From Psilocybe cubensis (taxonomy: Eukaryota), in the NCBI GenBank assembly GCA_017499595.2, contig CM039001.1, forward strand, positions 3,038,001 to 3,102,000: a DNA stretch of 64,000 nt. The letters run 5' to 3'. Of the stretch, positions 32,626 through 42,985 are shown piece by piece. The notes beneath the pieces were generated by a model. It made no database searches, was not told the origin of the DNA, and worked only from the letters and a program-made list of their open reading frames with translations. Made by a program: the position numbers and the translations under genes. The first letter of the stretch is position 1. Each line of letters begins with the position of its first letter.

Positions 32626-35600
32626 TCATCCGCCATGTGTAGGATTTGAACTGGTGGTATCAGTGGGTCGGTCCTTCGGTTCCGCATTGTGAATTTCCTC
32701 TTCCTTGATGCAGCAGGACTGCCATGCGAACCACATCATGGTCCGAAGCTGGAGCACATCTTCCTTCCAGACCTTACTTTGATTTTGCTCCCTGAACTCC
32801 TTCGTCAATTTCTCACACCGGTCTATGTTCTCGGGGCTGACAAAATCGATAGCGATCTTCATGCAGTCAGACATGTTGGCGACCTAAGTCAATAGAAGTT
32901 CCATTAAACATTAAAAATAACAAAAGGGGACACGATAACCACAAACCTGGTGTGCACAACCGGCCGGAATAAAAACTCCGTCGCCGGGCCTTTGGTAAAT
33001 CCTGATGCTCTTCACTCCACACTCGTCAAAGAGCGCCTTGCGTAGCTCAACGTCGAGATAAAATTGTTGGTTGTGAATTGGGTCAAGCCCAATCATAACG
33101 GAAGCAACACTCTTGTCTCCCGCACTAAAACCGATCAAGGTGAATCCATGATACCATTTCATCTCCGCCAATAGTAAACATACCTCTTCGAATTAGCACC
33201 ACTTTGTCCGATCGCTCCATTCGCTGAGGGTTGGCCGAACCTCTTCTTCAAGAACCCCCGTATCAAATCGCTGTCTTCGGCCCTGTACAAGTCCCATACT
33301 GCATAGCCTTCGGTTCCATCTTCACATGCTTCTGCATGCAACATGATGTTCAAAGCATCGGCCATGTCCATATGCAGTCGAGTGGAACCTTTACTACCAG
33401 GTTCTTGAGATGAAGCCATTGAGTTGTACATCTTCGGGCCTGGAAAAACGTCAGTCAGCACAGCATCGTTCAAAATGGCAAGTTGAAAACACAACCATAC
33501 CCAAATCTGGCCCAATAGCATTTTTGGGGAAATGAGACCCAATGTTATACACACCGTCTCGTCTCACATAGTCGGGGACGGGCACAGCGTTGCTAAAGTC
33601 TTCGTAAAGGTCAGGAAAGGCTGCTTTGAATTCAGCCGTGGGTGGCCAGTCCTATATTCATCGGAGAAGAGAGCAATGGGAAGGATATGAGAGTGATGGG
33701 TGGAAAGAAAACGTTGAGAGACAGACCTTAAGTTTCCAACATTCTGTCCGGCCTCCATACTTTCCAAACCATCCAAAAAAGTCTTTGATAGTGACCTTTT
33801 TGACAATGTCGCTCTGACACTCCACAACAAGACAATCCTTATCACCGTATCGCTCTATAAAAGATTGAGGCGTCCATGGTAATTTGAACCTGGGAAGAGC
33901 ATTTTTGACAAGGAGCGGCAAGCCTTTGCGCCACAAACAAGAAAACATAGGGATAGGCCCGTCTACTTGTGAATGCCTGATATCGGGTAGGTTATCGTAC
34001 AGATGCGCGGGAATTATCTGAGCGCGGAATATAGGTATATCGGAAATACGGGAAGAAACATTTGGAGGCGTATAGTCATCGTAAATGGGAGAAGTCAAAG
34101 GATCTGGGAAATCCTTTGCGGAATAGTCGCGTTCAGCATAAGTTGTAATCTGTGAAGGTACGGTTGGAGATACATTCGAGGGTTGTGTGAAAGAATGATC
34201 CGGCGACGAAGAGACTGATGCCGCCGTAGGGTGTATGGGGACAGGGTGTGTTGATGAATGGCGTTCGGTTGGTTGCACTGAATCGGCCATATTAGAAATA
34301 GCGAGCCCAGATGTGCCAGGACGTCCTGCAGGTACTGGGCTAGCCTGGGTCTTTTCTTTGTCCTGCGTCAAGATTTTTTGCATCTCATTGATGGATTTTT
34401 GTAGCTCATCGTTACTGAAGCGAGTGACCCGGATAAATTCGCTAACTCCATGTTCTATCCTCTTTGTGCAAGCCAAAAAGAAAGGATTTGAGTGAGCATG
34501 CTTCTCCCTCTTCATCACGAGCGCAGTCAGCTCCGAAGGTGTTGCTTGAGTAGGTTGTTCAGTAAGTTCGCGGACTTGTTGGTAACACTCGTTGCAAACT
34601 TCTCGACCACATATGCGGCACATGAACGTTTCTGAGAACAATGAAGTCATACAAGTGTCTAATGATCACGCGTCAGAAAACAAATGCTAATACATGAATA
34701 AAATAACAACATACCACATGTAGCGCGAACATCAGATTCGCGTGGGCGGCGCACAATAACACTCACAGACAAGTGATCTTGCTCCGCCACTAATATGGGG
34801 AAAAGTGCCTTCGCTATTGATAACTATTTTGTATGTGAGTGTAGAGTTCGGTACCTTAAGAATGTCGGTGGACAAACCTTGATACGTGTAATCTGTTCAA
34901 TCTTAAGGGGTTTATTCCACTTGGAAGGGAATTCCATCGGAGTAGCTGAGTGGCCTACTTCGTTGAAGCTTACACCGCACAGCTTTCTCTGAGAATCACG
35001 CAAAAAATATCGAATGCCTTGAAAACGACACGTATCGCCGGCCCACCTCCGCGTACATGATACACATCTAGGAAAGTCTTCCTTTTTGTATCGGTTGGAC
35101 ATGCAACGCGCAAACTGGAGTTCCGGGATATATTGTGAACCATCAGCCGTGGTTAGCGTTCCGGGAAGATCCCCTGTCGGTGTGATTTGAATGAGCTGTT
35201 TTTACAAGGTTTCGCATATGAGCAATACACTGACCAGCACCTTGGGACTGGCGTATGTCACTACCTCCTTGTTGAGCTTTCTGGAACGCATCTGCTGGGA
35301 AAGATATGTAATCAATATAAACGTCAGACGAATCGAGCAAGGTCGGAAAGTAAAAAAAGACAGGAAAGCGCCCCGACCCAGCAGGCGATGTAAGACTGTA
35401 CAACGACTCAAAATAATATCATGCATGAAGTCGAGACCAGTAATCCGTTGGTATCGACACAAAACAACTGTAAAACATACCATTTTGAGCAGAAATGATA
35501 GCGGCTTCGCTGCGCTTTTTAGCGTTATATCCACGCTTCGATGGACCTAGAGTTTGAGTGAGATGTCAGTTACGGTTACTAGTACTTCTGGACCAAGCCA

Positions 35601-36827
35601 GAATAAGACCACACTGAAGACGTGCAAAAATGTTATTTTAAGCATTCGGAAAGTGAGGGAGGTCAAGGGAACACGACTGGCCAGGTGCCATCAAAAAGTG
35701 CCACAGGTTACAAGAGTCAAAGATGACAGAAGACTCCCAAATATGAGCAAAACCTACACGCACCAGGTGTGGAGGACTCAGAACCGGTCGATTTAACCTT
35801 TGGCTTCGCCCGTTTAGCCTTGGGCGCTGGTGTGGCCTCGCTATCAGGAAGCCGTCTCTTCGAAGACGATGAAGATGACCCGGACGGTTCAACCGTTGAA
35901 ATTTGAGGTGAAGCCGAAGAGGGAATAGAAGTGGGCGGCTGCAAATGGGAATTATATTCGGTGGGATGGGTGTACAGATTCTGTTGGTCGTAGCCAGAAC
36001 CCGACTGGTTGTATCCGTGGTTGTTGGCGACTTGAGAAGGTTCCTGTAACGTCCCCTTGGCCGCGATACGGACAGATGCCCTTTCTGTTGATTGCCACAC
36101 AGGATTAGGTGCTAATAGTTCAGAAGATGAGCGAAAAGATGTCAGTAAAGATGGAGAATCTAACCCGGAATCTCAGACGGAACGTTGTTTGGAGTGAATG
36201 ACTCTGAAATAAAGTATGTGATGAGGTCTTGCGATGAATACGACAACAACATTATGGACCTTGATTTGACATGGGATACTCGGCAGTGAGCGCTGTAACA
36301 GTATTAGTCTGAGCTCATCAACGATACATTGATAATTTCTGCGCACTTGGTCGTTCATCTCTCTGAGCCTGTCCATATGACACATGTGAACCAGAAGGTT
36401 GGTGCGATTGAGGTCGCGGCTGCCAGTCGGGTTGTTCAGCAGGATACCCATTAGAATGGCCCACTCGTGTTCTCGCCGTCGTTGGAGGGTTGAGTGGGTA
36501 CGAATAGCCGTTAGATTGTGGATGAGCGACGGCTGCCATTGCCGAATGGGATTGCTGAGGGTATTCGTGGTGATACTGAACACCGGAGCTCACAGATTTT
36601 TGCTGTGAAGACTCTGAAGTAGGGTCCCAGTTCGCCGCACGAAGATTGTATACGGGCGATGTCGTGTAAGGTGAATCGTAGAAGGCGGACGGTGTTTGGG
36701 TCGGACCATGGTTTATGGAAGGGGAATTGGAGTTGTTGAGAGGGGATGAGTGTAATGCAGAGGCATTCTGTGGGTTCAGTAATGAAGTGATGGAGGTCTT
36801 CTTCGTAGGATCTTGCAAGCCATTCAT
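32626..36827 (-). CDS. JmjC-domain histone demethylase, KDM3/JMJD1-like, with Cys-rich zinc-finger region, multi-exon
   Basis: Disordered N-terminus; Cys motifs CVSCTRRWAGDTCRFQGIR and RATCDTCMTSLFSETFMCRICGREVCNEC; JmjC [86 protein letters not shown]. The Fe-binding HxD..H triad is intact. Confidence 0.92.
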
Positions 36828-37743
36828 TACGGTGGAAGAAAGCAATAAGGAAGGGACAAGTGACGCGGAAGTTGTAACACAAGACTGGCTTCAAACTTTT
36901 ATGGACTCCGCCAAATTGAACAATCGCGATACCCACGTGTACCGCGGCTCTGGGTCTTTAGTGCCTCCAATCAATCATCATCTCGCCACAAGATATCCAC
37001 CCCATTATCAAAATACTTGCACTGTGGGGACACACATACTAAAATACACTGCCTCTATTCAGTCTTACTCTTTCTAATTTGTAACTTTAATCAGTCACTT
37101 TCATCGCTAGGGCTGACTCGGTAGGAATGTCGGATCGATGGCAGATCGAAAACTTTTGTGTTCCTCACACAAACCGAACGCAACCATGCTAGGTGAAATC
37201 AGAAAACATCTCACGAACAACCTTTTCTCACAACCTCTCTTGGAATGTAGAACCTGGATGGACGATAATTGTTCGGGCATTACATATATCTCCGAGCCAA
37301 CCAGTACAACCAAAATACGTTAAGCATAGTACATAAGCCCGTGAGAAGCTCAATAAAAGAAGATGCCGGCATAGTATCCCAACCGAAGAAATCAGGACTC
37401 GAAATAGATTTAAGTCTCAGCAAGAACGAGCATTCTTTTGCTGGGGTGCCATCTACTGAACGAATGCAAAGAATATCAATCCCGAGTTCATCAAGCCCAA
37501 TGTAATTAACCACACAGATGGTAGTCCATTATACTACGCAGATCGAATGGCTGTTGTCACTGGTTCTCGGTGTGTCCAATAAACTTTCTAAAATCCACCT
37601 GATGACTCACTTGTTCCATGGACATTCGTAGGAAGCGCAGCTAAAAAATGTAGGGCCCGTGCTCCTTTGAGCATATACTTAAAGGGAGACCCCGCGACGC
37701 AAAAACGAGAAACGCGATTGTCCAGTCACCACTTCCATCTATA

Positions 37744-38391
37744 ATGGCCAGAACTAAACAATCTGCTCGAAAATCGACGGGAGGTATGAAATCGATTAAT
37801 CCATCAATGCGGCACGGAACCTGACTTTCAGCCAGGGAAAACACCTCGAAACCAAATTCTAGAACACATTGTATCCAAAACTCCTAGGGATTCAGGTTCG
37901 CAAGTGGCAAAAAAGACCACCAACAACTTCGTAAGATATTTCTCTAAATTTCCTTCTGTAAACATTAACCAATATCCTTCCTGTCTTTAGGCAAAAAAAT
38001 CGGTTTCCTATGGGGGAGTGAAGAAACCACATCGTTTCCGCCCTGGCACCGTTGCTCTGCGCGAAATCCGTCGCTATCAGAAGTCCACTGAGCTCCTTAT
38101 TCGCAAGCTTCCGTTTCAGAGACTTGTGCGAGAGATAGCTCAGGATTACAAGGTGTGTCATTTTCTTTTTTCATACACTTGACATAACAATAGCGTTATA
38201 ATTCAAAATCCATCTAGACAGACTTGCGGTTCCAGTCGTCTGCTATCATGGCACTTCAGGAGGCATCCGAGGCTTATCTTATTTCGCTGTTCGAAGACAC
38301 TAATCTAGCTGCTATCCACTCTAAAAGGGTTACCATTATGCCAAAGGATTTATACTTAGCCCGGCGCCTCCGCGGAGAAGTTCGCCATTAG
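37744..38391 (+). CDS. Divergent histone H3 variant with altered and extended N-terminal tail (4 exons; not represented on its own strand in the ORF track)
   Basis: Exons 37744-37783, 37836-37930, 37991-38152 and 38218-38391 give [156 protein letters not shown]. All introns are GT-AG and the frame is intact. Confidence 0.93.
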
Positions 38392-40361
38392 ACATACAGC
38401 ATTCTCCAATGTGCGGTAGTCAAATTTTATAACATAAATGCATTCCAAAACTCGGATGGCTCATTTTCTCACTACTATCGTAGCTCCCAGGGACGAGAAA
38501 CGGTGCTTAATTTTACTGTTGTCGATGACATGCCTTTAGGAACAGCCTTGAAATTTACTCGCCGAGGTCATTAGTACCATGCGGACAAAGGACATCGCAT
38601 CCCGACTACTTTTCAGCTACCGTTAGCATTTGCTCTCTAAGTGCAAAAAGCACCCTACCTCGGTCACTTGCCGTGTATGCTTGCAAGCTAATAAAGATAC
38701 CTTTTATTCCATTAGACTATAGTATTAAATCCTTTAGCGTAATGGTAACCCTTTTGGTATCCTAACCCTTCCAATCGCATGCCTCGACTCCAACAAGGTC
38801 GATTATCGGGCTTTGGGGCTAAGTATTCTGTATGCCTTGTAAAGCGAGAAGGGATCCTGGATATAGATTTTGTACAAAATTTACTTTTTCAATATTATAA
38901 TTTGTCGACATCGGAAAGCCGGACAGAGTAATCCGAGGAAGCGTCAATCGGACATTTAGATGTTGTCATTAGATTACATGGAAGCGATGAGAGAAACCAC
39001 AACTAACAACCTCGTCGACATTTCAAATTTCAACTCTTCCCAAACTATACCACTCTCTTTGAATCGTCAACGGTTCATGACTTGGTCAAGCTCTGCCATT
39101 TATAATGGCGTCTCTTCAGCATTCCTTCGAGTTTGCCTTCATACGAATTTTGATCTGGGTGCCAAGTAGCACTATGCCGGCGGATTAAAATTTTCTGTTT
39201 GTTCCTTGAGTCTGAAAACTACTACCACGTGTGATGTTACCCCACCTCCACATACAAATCCCCAGATGGCGTACTGCTAATGCGGCTAACATGGTCCGTT
39301 CTTCTTTCTTCGCCTTCCATCTCCCTCCACTGGGTAACGGTACTTTTACGGTATTAGCATCTCGATTAAGTATATCTTAGCCTTGACATAGAGCGAAAGC
39401 AAACCAAAAACTGGAGTTTGAAGCAACCTTTTACGAAAAAAGCTGTTGAGAGAAAGTTCAACGGTGACCATACACCTCGACAAGGACAATATATGAAGTC
39501 TTCCCCTAGGCTCCGCGCAATTTGTTTTTTCATCGATAATCTGTTCCTGTTTGCCTCGGATGCGTGTTTAACTAATTAAAGTTTTAAATTTTAGAGGTGG
39601 CAATATACCCTGTCCAGTTGTCGGAGTCCTAATATCGAACAAGCGCTTTCGAGTCCCAACTGCGTCTATCCGGGTCTACCGTTTCCTACACACTACTGAC
39701 TTCAGATCGATCTACCTAAATCAGAAAAGATGAACAGAAATTTTATAAGATTGACTTGATAAAGTCGCGGCTATAGACGTTACGCGTCCGGGAGGTTCTC
39801 TGTGCCAGAGGTAATATCTATGGTCCGACGGTTCCCCGAAAGTTGTGTGTGATCCAAGCACGCACTAAATTTAAGTCCCACGTGTACTTCACGTTTCCAA
39901 GAACTCTGTCGTCACCGGTTCGACTGGTTGATATCAACCAAACTTACATCCCGACTCATTTCTAAGCCCAAATACCTATATCTTCTCTCACAAATCCTTC
40001 CATCTTATCGGATTCAATGATGGCTATGGGTCCCATGACCTTCAAATTTTAGCGCCATTGGGCACTCAGTCGTAAGCTGGCTTGTCAAATGATCAAATCG
40101 GCATTAGAGAACGTGAAACGAAATTGCTCCCCAGAGCAAACTCAACCTCTGTGGTCACCGAGAACTCTACCAAGGCAGCGTTAGGTCGGAGTCTCATGAT
40201 ACTCTGCAATATGCGTAATTTATTTTCGATCGTATTCGTTTTTGCAAAGCGGACACCTCGAAATCGCAAGCACCGGAAGGACAGTGAAGTAAATGAGTTA
40301 AATACCGAGTTGTTTCTGCGAATGTAACAAGCTGTTCGCCCACTGCCTTTGGTTTTTCAGG

Positions 40362-42985
40362 ATGCGCTTGCTTACGCTGTCTGCTTTCTTTGCGCTACTC
40401 CCGTACGCTCTTACGAGCCCGGTTTTCCACAACTCCACTGTTCACGATGATATCAATGCGCGTGCGCCATCCAGCTCTAAGTCTGTCATCATTCAAATGT
40501 TCGAGTGGAACTGGGACAGCATCGCTGCGGAGTGCACAAATTTTATAGGACCCGCTGGCTATGGTTATGTTCAAGGTGAATATTGCATGCTTTCCCGTAA
40601 CTTGACTAATATTGTATCTAGTTAGTCCTCCTCAAGAACATATCAAAGGATCTCAGTGGTGGACAGACTACCAACCCGTCTCCTACATCCTGACTTCAAA
40701 ACGTGGAAATCGAGATCAGTTCAAAAAGTATGAATCTTCTTCCTTGAAATGTATAAACCTGTTCATTTTGATCCCAGCATGATTTCAACATGCCATGCAG
40801 CTGGAGTCAACGTTATTGTCGGTAAGCATGCCTTTTCGTTTATTATTCATTATTTCTGAAATATGTTGGCTAGACACTATCTTCAATCATATGGCTGGGA
40901 TCGACTCCGGCACCGGCACAGCAGGAAGCTCCTTCACACAATACGTCTATCCTGGAATTTATCAGTACCAGGTCAGTTTCTCTTTTCTGTTCACCGCCTA
41001 TTGTCTCATCACGGTCTACTTAGGATTTTCATCATTGCGGCCTTACAAAGGGAAATGATATTGTCGACTATTCCAATCGCTACCAGGTGCAAAATTGCGA
41101 GTTGGTAAATTTGTCTGAGTACGTTTCAAAACGTTGCGTCAATTTGTTGTGCAACTAACACCATTGTAGCCTTGCAACTGAGACGGAATACGTTCGTTCG
41201 CGTTTAGCTGCCTACGCTAACGACTTGTTGTCGTTGGGGGTTGATGGGCTCAGACTCGATGCTGCGAAGCGTAGGCACCATTTTTAACCTATGGCGCGGT
41301 ATACTCACCCGCTTTACAGATATTCCAGCCGGGGATCTAGCGAACATTGTGAACAGGCTTTCACGCCGTCCTTATATTACCTCCGAGGTAATTTGGGGTG
41401 GTGGGGAACCCATTCAACCTTCAGAGTACACAGGCATAGGTGAATGGTGTCTATAATATATCTCTTGCAACATTTTTAACTGGTAAAATTAGGCGACGTT
41501 CAAGAGTTCGTGGAATAAGTTTCCATAATGACGTCATGTAGAATAACTCGTTCTATTTTTAGATTCCGGTACACCACTGCCCTCAAAGACTCGTTTTTGG
41601 GCGGAGGAATTTCGAATCTGCAAAATTTGGAAAATAGAGGTGAGTTTCTGGTATATAATTTATAACTAATCTTAAATCATTGTGGTACAGGCTGGGTATC
41701 CGGATCGCAAGCAAACGTCTTTGTCGCTAACCATGATACAGAGCGGGTTAGCTATAATTTTATCGACACATTCGCCCTGGATATTGAAATGCTTAACCAC
41801 AGAACGGCGCCTCCTTAACTGTTAACTCCCCTTCTAATACCTACATTACCTCTCACGTATTTTCTCTCGCCCACCCTTATGGAACTCCTACCATCCTTTC
41901 AAGCTATTCGTTCGGAGGACATGAAGAAGGGGCTCCTAATGGAGGTATATAAAAAAGTTCATCGATATAAACAAATCTCACACCGAATACTCCAGGGGTT
42001 GCATCATGCTCATCGACGGGAGGTTCCGGAGGTTGGCTCTGCCAACATCGCTATATTGCTATTAGTGGCATGGTCGGTTTCCGCAACAATGTTGGCTCAG
42101 CGGGCCTAACAAACTGGGTTTCTCCTCAATCCAACAGAATTGCTTTCGGAAGAGGTATATCACTTGTTGAAGCATGCATTCCGCTTCACTCATCTGTATT
42201 AAATCTAGGCGCCCTTGGCTTCGTAGCCATTAATAATGCCGATTCTGCATGGAGCACTACATTTTCAACTTCTTTACCTTCGGGGTCGTACTGCGATGTG
42301 ATTAGTGGGAAAAGCTCCTCAGGATCTTGCACTGGCAACACGTATGTCTTGGTAAATTCCATGTATACTGACTTTAACCGAACTATTTTTATAGGATTAG
42401 TGTTTCCAACGGCCAATTCACAGTTACCGTTCCCGCTCGAAGCGCTGTCGCCATTCATACCGGTGCCACAAGTTCTTCTCCTGGAACTGTTGACCCTGGC
42501 ACTGGCAATCCTAATCCCGGACCTGTTTCCGTGACATTCCAAGTCACTGCCACGACAACATGGGGCCAGGTAACTATATTTCTACTGCTTGTGTTAAATG
42601 TGCTTCCTGATTCTGATACATTTTTGAAGAATATTTTCCTCGTTGGAAGCCTCTCGCAACTTGGATCTTGGACCGCAGCTTCAGCGGTAATTCTACAATC
42701 TCACCACGATTTTTTGTTTAACTCACACAAGCACCAACTTACTCATAGGTCGCTCTTTCGTCTGCAAATTATCCTGTGTGGAGCGCGACAGTTTCAATTC
42801 CTGCGGGCACGAGCTTCGAATACAAGTTCATTAAGAAGAATTCAGACGGAAGTGTACGCACATACGATTACGTTGTTGTTCATTTAACTCACTTTCTCTC
42901 TTTATAGATTAACTGGGAGTCAGATCCCAACCGCCAAGCAACTGCTTCTGGAGGAGCACAGACTTTGTCCCAGTCCTGGAGATAG
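40362..42985 (+). CDS. Secreted GH13 alpha-amylase with C-terminal CBM20, about 16 introns
   Basis: Signal peptide; [63 protein letters not shown] (nucleophile Asp); YITSEVIWG (acid/base Glu); [20 protein letters not shown]20 [38 protein letters not shown]. Confidence 0.93.

Follow-up and report, generated by a model that had tools for sequence, protein, structure and literature searches.

The 64,000-nucleotide stretch of Psilocybe cubensis DNA analysed here (the window; positions 3,038,001 to 3,102,000 of contig CM039001.1, forward strand) contains, at 37744-38391 on the plus strand, a four-exon gene with a coding sequence of 471 nt that encodes a histone H3 of 156 aa. The protein is likely to be a genuine, transcribed, selectively maintained and non-centromeric H3 variant that exists beside the ordinary H3 of the species and has orthologs in at least five other species from three families of the Agaricineae; it is probably a lineage-specific working chromatin protein.

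The spliced product is letter-identical to a database protein (P0001, "Histone H3 [Psilocybe cubensis]", 156 aa), which was retrieved by a search that started from the stop-to-stop frame around exon 2. Five public runs contain the locus, and four of them (X1, X2, X3 and X5) were aligned to positions 37400-38750 of the window. A single 1260-nt contig of X1 (assembly of about 20 Mb) omits four intervals, all of them GT..AG; three are exactly the modelled coding introns and the fourth is an intron of the 5' untranslated region (5'UTR; coordinates in Table 1). In the alignment of this contig the joints were placed at 37568|37631, 37781|37834, 37930|37991 and 38150|38216. The joint across intron 1 was also identified in an independent 153-nt contig of X2. 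In the genome-type runs X3 and X5 (assemblies of about 45 Mb each) the region is present in one unspliced piece each, and because the intervals kept in these runs are removed in X1, the spliced form represents a processed transcript. Since the X1 contig retains all of exon 2, the exon encoding the odd tail is part of the mature mRNA. The assembled contigs are uninformative on expression level, strand and stage. Two other splicing patterns were considered and rejected: an alternative acceptor of intron 1 (tttcag, ending at 37831), with which the reading runs into a stop codon, and skipping of exon 2, in which the phase-1 end of exon 1 meets the phase-0 start of exon 3 and the frame is broken. 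Compared with the window, X5 differs at six sites in 1351 bases, two in intron 1 and four in the coding sequence, where three are synonymous third positions and one is R155H (position 38384), in the penultimate residue of the variable C-terminus. This pattern is consistent with purifying selection, for the proof of which the sample is far too small.

The product has the fold of a nucleosomal H3. PF00125 was matched by exon 3 with 57.1 bits and by exon 4 with 75.8 bits (curated cut-off 26.4; exon 2 alone matched no Pfam family). The best PDB matches were nucleosomal H3.2/H3.1 chains (E about 3e-63), with residues 1-24 aligned to H3 1-24 and residues 46-153 aligned without gaps to H3 27-134. The N-terminus is of the H3 type, with the ARTKQ start and the ARKSTGGK pattern. 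Of 100 aligned positions of the fold, 93 are the same as in the canonical agaric fold, and there is no insertion or deletion; the seven substitutions are Y78, S114, V89I, A96S, V101I, Q120M and A125Y, to which the C-terminal GEVRH is added. At every feature that marks the canonical H3 proteins of 137/138 aa (T6, K18, K23, F78, Q120, A125 and the GER[ST] end) the variant differs, and on the fold tree described below it lies outside the canonical group. The changes at Y78, M120, residue 125 and the C-terminus are situated near the dyad and the H3-H3' interface (four-helix bundle) of the nucleosome. An AlphaFold2 model of the monomer was of low confidence (mean predicted local distance difference test score, pLDDT, 54.7; predicted template modelling score, pTM, 0.30), with the tail below 50 in residues 11-17 and 19-55. 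Replacement variants of the H3.3 type are characterised by a signature at residue 31 and residues 87-90 and by replication-independent expression and deposition; positions 87-90 read SAIM in the variant compared to SAVM in canonical agaric H3, i.e., a single position of the H3.3 signature has moved. The variant falls outside the K27-less class (H3.15 type), because all seven proteins of its clade carry a lysine at residue 27 or 28, in addition to modules of the form A-K-K-[S/T].

An ordinary H3 is present in the same species. Protein P0174 ("histone H3 [Psilocybe cubensis]", 138 aa), found in the 90% cluster of one of two H3 proteins of canonical type that had been translated from metagenomic loci, has an ordinary tail, with T6, K18, K23 and a single ARKT module, and a fold without any difference from the canonical agaric one; its cluster also holds P0181, a canonical H3 common to Hypholoma sublateritium and Pholiota conissans. 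Because this canonical H3 coexists with it in P. cubensis, the variant is a true additional H3. In the alignment of the two proteins 116 of 153 positions are identical, and the 17 gap positions are confined to the tail. With the canonical agaricomycete H3 (137/138 aa; P0174, and P0155 and P0180 of Coprinopsis cinerea) the variant shares its first 20 residues save for T6S, A15T, K18N and L20I, as well as agaricomycete-specific residues such as A110 and L130; among canonical-type loci, too, an intron after K79 (locus L052 is interrupted at this site) and a phase-0 intron just upstream of GGVKK are found. It differs in a tail that is 17 residues longer than in the canonical H3 of P. cubensis, lacks K18 and K23 and has extra lysine modules and hydrophobic residues, and in Y78, S114, M120, Y125 and the GEVRH end. 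The Agaricineae have two canonical H3 isoforms, P0155/P0156 (137 aa) and P0170/P0180 (138 aa), with identical folds; their differences are limited to the region of tail residues 21-33 (ATKAARKTAQTAT vs. ASKSAARKTATNAA), and both occur in Laccaria bicolor and C. cinerea.

Relatives of the variant were sought in database searches with P0001, both at full length and with residues 1-62. Among 152 proteins screened for features, S6 or Y78 was present in 11 and the whole signature in seven, the signature being S6, Y78, M120, a bulky and hydrophobic residue 125, a C-terminus that is rewritten and longer by at least one residue, and a rewritten segment from residue 20 to K36; all six features are present in the window protein. 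The seven proteins derive from six species of three families, the Agrocybaceae (Psilocybe), Strophariaceae and Hymenogastraceae (NCBI taxonomy). Besides P0001, they are P0074 of Flammula alnicola (153 aa), P0092 of Hebeloma cylindrosporum (161 aa), P0098 of Pholiota conissans (154 aa), P0121 of Pholiota molesta (132 aa) and two proteins of Hypholoma sublateritium (P0115 and P0134, 139 aa each). The reading frame is complete in six of the seven; the seventh, P0121, is a mis-modelled protein that reads through intron 3, after K79. A maximum-likelihood tree of 37 rows was computed from GGVKK to the C-terminus, i.e., with the tail excluded, and with P0121 and fused or doubled H3 entries left out. 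The six full-length variants formed one clade with a support of 96/90; the bootstrap was still short of convergence (correlation 0.982), and these values are therefore rough. The folds of eight named canonical agaricomycete H3 proteins were identical (branch length 0), whereas the end branches of the variants ranged from 0 to 0.12: the variant fold evolves measurably and the canonical fold is invariant in eight species.

Relative to the canonical fold, the clade shares F78Y (7/7), Q120M (6/6), a change of A125 to Y, I or V (6/6) and rewritten positions 134-135 with at least one extra residue (6/6). Other changes are distributed less evenly: K122R occurs in five of six members (P. cubensis being the exception), D77E/Q in five of seven and V89I in four of six. 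Compared to P0115, the second Hypholoma copy, P0134, carries the extra fold changes E73G, D81N, A110V, R129K and G132S. Mean pairwise identity (14 clade pairs) was 0.95 for residues 1-20, 0.20 for the mid-tail from residue 20 to GGVKK, and 0.87 for the fold. That two regions are kept at 87-95% while the third has dropped to 20% argues against a neutral pseudogene.

The tail itself combines conserved and rewritten parts, with a conserved start that is common to all seven clade proteins. K4, K9, S10 and K14 and the equivalents of K36, K37, K56 and K79 are kept, while K18 is replaced by N18, no lysine is present at 23, and AKKS stands just upstream of GGVKK. The K36 equivalent has moved by +19, to mature position 55; KTPR occurs at mature positions 14 and 27, and AKK[T/S] at 37 and 45. 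A repeated exact 4-mer arose in 98 of 20,000 composition-preserving shuffles of the segment K14-Y51, and in seven of 20,000 such a 4-mer was accompanied by an independent repeated 3-mer, so that the repetition of the tail exceeds what its composition gives. A recent tandem duplication as the source of the KTPR and AKK repeats was considered and is unsupported, the units being identical at 14/30 and 13/30 positions in the DNA; the second KTPR is missing in the six other clade proteins and thus is species-specific. With these results the observations of the original prediction, made from the letters of the window, stand in nearly all their parts: an intact gene (four-exon model, identical NCBI protein, exact splicing in the RNA-type contig) for a near-canonical, non-centromeric fold, with K9/S10, K14, K36, K56 and K79 kept in the spliced product, K18 changed to N and K23 lost, the K36 equivalent 19 residues late, KTPR and AKK[T/S] each present twice, and T6S, F78Y, A114S and a C-terminal GEVRH. 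The prediction is also in agreement with the phylogeny, in which the variants form one clade apart from canonical H3, and with an RNA-type contig spliced as modelled. Its interpretation is supported in part: an intact variant is borne out, and the variant may, as it suggested, evade or multiply K18/K23/K27 marks and be stage-specific. Only the claim that the context of K27 had turned from ARKS into AKKS holds in part: AKKS does precede GGVKK, but a lysine is also present at the canonical position 27 (VSKTP), which leaves the K27 equivalent ambiguous.

Three modules of P. cubensis, VSK27T, VAK38K39T and FAK46K47S, provide candidates for K27, namely K27 in place (the position in the orthologs), K39 (BLAST against ARKTATN of the species' own canonical H3) and K46 (HMMER, with nine-residue spacing to K36). 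The identity of the K27 equivalent among these three lysines is ambiguous on the alignments; the ortholog position favours VSK27T. Throughout the clade a lysine at 27/28 (7/7, in the context [A/S/T]-x-K-[T/S/N/D]) is the positional homolog of canonical K27/K28. Each of the five long tails has two [KR]K[STA] motifs compared to one in canonical H3, and the long forms have four to five lysines, a net charge of +4 to +6 and mid-tails with seven to eight hydrophobic residues (seven in P. cubensis; none in canonical H3). From residue 21 to GGVKK there are 28-31 residues in five species, 14 in Hypholoma and 13-14 in canonical H3. K18 is lost in six of the seven clade proteins (all six having N18, and the PRNQI motif likewise being found in six of seven), and K23 is absent in all five long tails, with K24 in one Hypholoma copy. 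With regard to the origin of the longer tail, the canonical-type intron lies in phase 0 two to three codons upstream of GGVKK and intron 2 of the variant, also in phase 0, seven codons upstream, so that exon 3 of the variant starts four to five codons earlier relative to GGVKK than in canonical-type loci. Part of the extra tail (AKKSV) may derive from the splice boundary of intron 2. Growth of the tail by exonisation of the canonical intron was explored and found no confirmation, the earlier start of exon 3 being the sole observation.

If the variant is a functional nucleosomal protein, it would pair with H4 and replace canonical H3 in ordinary nucleosomes. Such nucleosomes would retain the K4, K9-S10 and K14 block, the K36-K37 block, K56 and K79, and would be without the acetyl-acceptor lysines K18 and K23. 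The spacer between residue 20 and K36 would be 17-19 residues longer, with three A-[K/R]-K-[S/T] modules and seven hydrophobic residues, the latter being unusual for an H3 tail. The K27-type module would occur two or three times, in a changed context and at a distance from the nucleosome core that is greater by 17-19 residues. This should alter the choice of writers and readers that act on the K18/K23/K27/K36 region, and the clade changes at Y78 (beside K79), M120, the bulky residue at 125 and the rewritten residues 134-136 may tune nucleosome stability, pairing or variant-specific handling. Within this reading as a functional nucleosomal variant, an effect on tail marks, a suggestion that is built on the protein sequence, is less likely than not to be the main point. 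A stronger version appears unlikely, in which the K27 methyl/phospho module "A-R-K-S/T" has been reiterated two to three times and K18/K23 deleted to give a multivalent, acetylation-poor tail that, together with Y78, M120 and 125, marks a special chromatin state. Spores or basidia might have their chromatin silenced or compacted in this way, or the state might serve as a memory of the Polycomb kind, and the variable spacer would evolve quickly together with its readers; if true, this would be the first fungal tail-rewired H3 deployed in development, and nature would have provided an experiment on what the number and spacing of K27-type modules mean for writers and readers.

Other explanations of the gene were weighed against a maintained variant. 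The long tail might be an annotation artefact, in which an intron has been wrongly included and the real product is an ordinary H3, as is suggested by the many agaricomycete H3 entries of 143-170 aa with a canonical fold and an insert at the intron site (e.g., P0096, P0110, P0112, P0120, P0163) and by metagenomic canonical-type loci with an in-frame intron of 54-57 nt at that place. We consider this very improbable here: in the RNA-type contig exon 2 is complete and the coding introns are cut out precisely as modelled, joining exon 1 to exon 3 is out of frame, the other acceptor of intron 1 gives a stop, and the non-canonical residues shared by the clade extend to the fold, outside the tail. 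A centromeric H3 (CENP-A/Cse4/CenH3) has a divergent N-tail without the ARTK start, a divergent fold and a longer loop 1. That the protein belongs there, or is some other non-nucleosomal protein with a histone fold, is extremely improbable, given that the ARTKQ start and the K9-S10-K14 block are kept and that the protein aligns without gaps to nucleosomal H3, shares 93 of 100 aligned fold positions with canonical agaric H3 and has no insertion in loop 1; the weak matches of exon 4 to CENP-S (E 0.0013) and CENP-T_C (E 0.0026) are both under their curated cut-offs, and the PF00125 scores are far above them.

It is unlikely, too, that the gene is a transcribed but redundant or slowly decaying H3 duplicate, the fold of which is kept only against dominant-negative histones while the tail drifts and its modules are meaningless. 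Such a duplicate would account for the mid-tail identity of 0.20 and the variable tail length, for a fold that evolves faster than the invariant canonical fold, for the more degenerate second Hypholoma copy, and for repeat units without similarity at the DNA level (14/30, 13/30) together with a second KTPR that is not in the orthologs. It would not account for complete frames in six of seven clade proteins (the seventh mis-modelled), nor for residues 1-20 that are 95% identical and include the clade-specific S6 and, in six of seven, PRNQI, nor for derived residues at 78, 120 and 125 throughout the clade. Lysine 27/28 in all seven proteins and two [KR]K[STA] motifs in all five long tails argue in the same direction, as do three synonymous changes among four coding polymorphisms and four correctly spliced introns. 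As far as protein data allow, the transcript, the intact frames and the uneven constraint across the clade thus speak against a recent pseudogene in neutral divergence, which the original prediction had named as the outcome opposed to it. An effect centred on the core and not on the tail marks is improbable; in such a variant Y78, M120, 125 and the C-terminus would alter stability, H3-H3' pairing or the choice of chaperone (in spore compaction, repair or meiosis), with the tail as a tolerated spacer. The most consistent clade-wide changes are indeed in the fold and the C-terminus, the mid-tail is least conserved, and V89I (4/6) touches the 87-90 patch, which decides between the H3.1 and H3.3 chaperones in animals and plants; for plant H3.3, residues 87 and 90 have been linked with HIRA in the available part of a review (PMC10426802). 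Against this, the clade-wide loss of K18 (6/7) and of K23 (5/5 long tails), S6 and the lysine modules indicate that the changes in the tail are not random either.

Several points weigh against the interpretation as a functional, selectively maintained variant. X1 and X2 are taken as RNA from a guessed label only and come from one common study. Selection is inferred from patterns of protein conservation and from four polymorphic coding sites, and the mechanism from sequence alone. The mid-tail (20% identity; 14 residues in Hypholoma and 28-31 elsewhere) may be a largely unconstrained spacer and not a set of functional modules, and the reading of three modules depends on a short, gappy alignment. 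The faster evolution of the variant fold compared to the canonical fold could reflect relaxed constraint instead of a new function, and P0134, with 16 fold changes in its first 100 positions, may be diverging or decaying. Furthermore, protein searches did not retrieve the variant from Gymnopilus, Panaeolus, Agrocybe or other Psilocybe, a gap that may be due to loss or just to missing gene models; the sole match in Gymnopilus (Galerinaceae) had a canonical fold.

Table 1. Parts of the variant H3 gene in the window (positions count from the first nucleotide of the window).
Feature	Positions	Strand	Description
5'UTR exon, upstream part	37400-37569	+	X1 contig positions 387-555 match 37400-37568
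5'UTR intron	37570-37631	+	62 nt, GT..AG; spliced in X1, retained in DNA-type X3 and X5
5'UTR, proximal part	37632-37743	+	X1 contig
Coding exon 1	37744-37783	+	Met and first 13 tail residues (K4, K9, S10; S6 for T6); phase-1 end within second glycine codon
Intron 1	37784-37835	+	52 nt, GT..AG; joint seen in X1 and in separate X2 contig
Coding exon 2	37836-37930	+	K14 to F44: N18, hydrophobic ILEHIV, K27 in VSKTPR, first AKKT module
Intron 2	37931-37990	+	60 nt, GT..AG, phase 0; seven codons upstream of GGVKK codons
Coding exon 3	37991-38152	+	AKKS module, GGVKK (K36/K37 equivalents), alpha-N, alpha-1, K56, Y78-K79; PF00125 E 2.8e-15
Intron 3	38153-38217	+	65 nt, GT..AG; immediately 3' of K79 codon
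Coding exon 4	38218-38391	+	alpha-2, alpha-3, C-terminus GEVRH, stop codon; PF00125 E 4.4e-21
3'UTR	38392-38512	+	limit is the end of the X1 contig, which is not a mapped poly(A) site

Upstream of the gene, the X1 contig runs for at least another 386 nt beyond 37400. Either the leader is longer than 650 nt, or the contig may be a fusion with the transcript of an upstream gene on the minus strand (open reading frames, ORFs, at 36318-36957). A tblastn search of the window with canonical and variant H3 found this locus and no other H3. Ten flanking ORFs were compared with Pfam, with matches to an alpha-amylase C-terminal domain, CBM20 and, below the threshold, FYVE; no partner H4 was detected among them. 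The amylase ORFs at 41971-42884 (+; PF02806, E 1.3e-8; CBM20 PF00686, E 6.4e-8) belong to a multi-exon gene about 3.5 kb downstream of the histone gene. On the minus strand, an open frame of 334 aa at 33658-34662 has a weak match to the FYVE zinc finger (E 0.00098, under the Pfam cut-off), and further long frames extend as far as about 36957 without a Pfam match.

Over-long H3 proteins are not rare in agaricomycete databases. Most such entries have a canonical fold with an odd insert at the canonical intron site (Lentinus, Trametes, Schizophyllum, Lactarius), and eight metagenomic canonical-type loci have there, two to three codons upstream of GGVKK, a GT..AG-compatible, phase-0, in-frame intron of 54-57 nt; given this combination of a canonical fold with an insert at the intron site, those entries represent retained-intron mis-annotations. 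P0096, P0105, P0108, P0110, P0112, P0118, P0120, P0163 and P0060 (143-170 aa) are canonical H3 with errors of this kind or with duplicated segments in their tail models, and the length of an entry is by itself little help in recognising real H3 variants in agaricomycete genomes. A scan of metagenomes with the variant protein gave 591 stretches that matched the pattern and 501 confirmed relatives, from which the best 80 loci were kept. All of these best 80 of 501 were generic or canonical-type H3 (65-76% identical), and the 12 translated loci among them encoded canonical-type or other short-tailed H3 and none of the variant type. Lengthened tails are also found in the environmental H3 proteins P0124, P0125, P0127, P0132, P0136 and P0140, none of which fell into the mushroom clade on the fold tree; P0124 and P0125 have a second APRK..L.SKAA unit, and in P0140, S6, Y78 and an extended C-terminus occur with a short tail that is canonical in other respects.

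H3 tails are normally near-invariant, as in the eight agaricomycete species with identical folds, the tails of which are near-identical. A conserved and expressed variant that keeps the K4/K9/K14 and K36 blocks, deletes K18/K23 and expands the interval from K27 to K36 would provide a handle on how writers and readers respond to the spacing and copy number of modules, and a natural one on chromatin organisation in mushroom development. In species of the clade, the variant would read differently from bulk H3 in antibody-based assays of H3K27, H3K18 and H3K23 and in mass spectrometry.

The protein is a clade-restricted fungal H3 variant, undescribed and with no match among characterised basidiomycete H3 classes in the literature searched, which did not cover the main survey of H3 variants (Waterborg 2012); lineage-specific, non-centromeric H3 variants with altered tails are already known as a kind. 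Fungi are usually regarded as poor in H3 variants, according to the accessible part of a study that also notes non-canonical H3 variants in Basidiomycota and Zoopagomycota (PMC6703697); its remark on Basidiomycota may refer to the near-identical canonical isoforms of 137/138 aa. In agaricomycetes the number of histone genes has been reported as 14-40 per species, with four histone orthogroups expressed in development; the variant is not described in the text of the histone section of that report (PMC10282164); in the portion of Vonk & Ohm 2021 at hand, only small differences of the canonical tail, of the S28T/P30N type, are given (PMC8046757). Among plant proteins, the closest parallels in the same part of the review cited above are two Arabidopsis variants that are likewise lineage-restricted, non-centromeric and altered in the tail around K27: H3.15, in which K27 is replaced by histidine, which blocks PRC2, and which acts in callus formation, and H3.10, which functions in the reprogramming of sperm chromatin (PMC10426802). 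H3.15 loses K27, whereas the mushroom variant keeps lysine 27/28, adds K27-like modules, loses K18/K23 and has a longer tail; it originated independently, in a fungus, and is known here from sequence and transcript. A fungal counterpart is H3VCTG, the CTG-clade variant of Candida albicans, which, as far as the accessible text goes, is also restricted to a clade and exists beside the canonical H3; it differs from canonical H3 at three positions (31, 32, 80), (PMC6703697), whereas in the mushroom variant about 37 of 153 aligned positions deviate, counting the 17 residues by which the tail is expanded.

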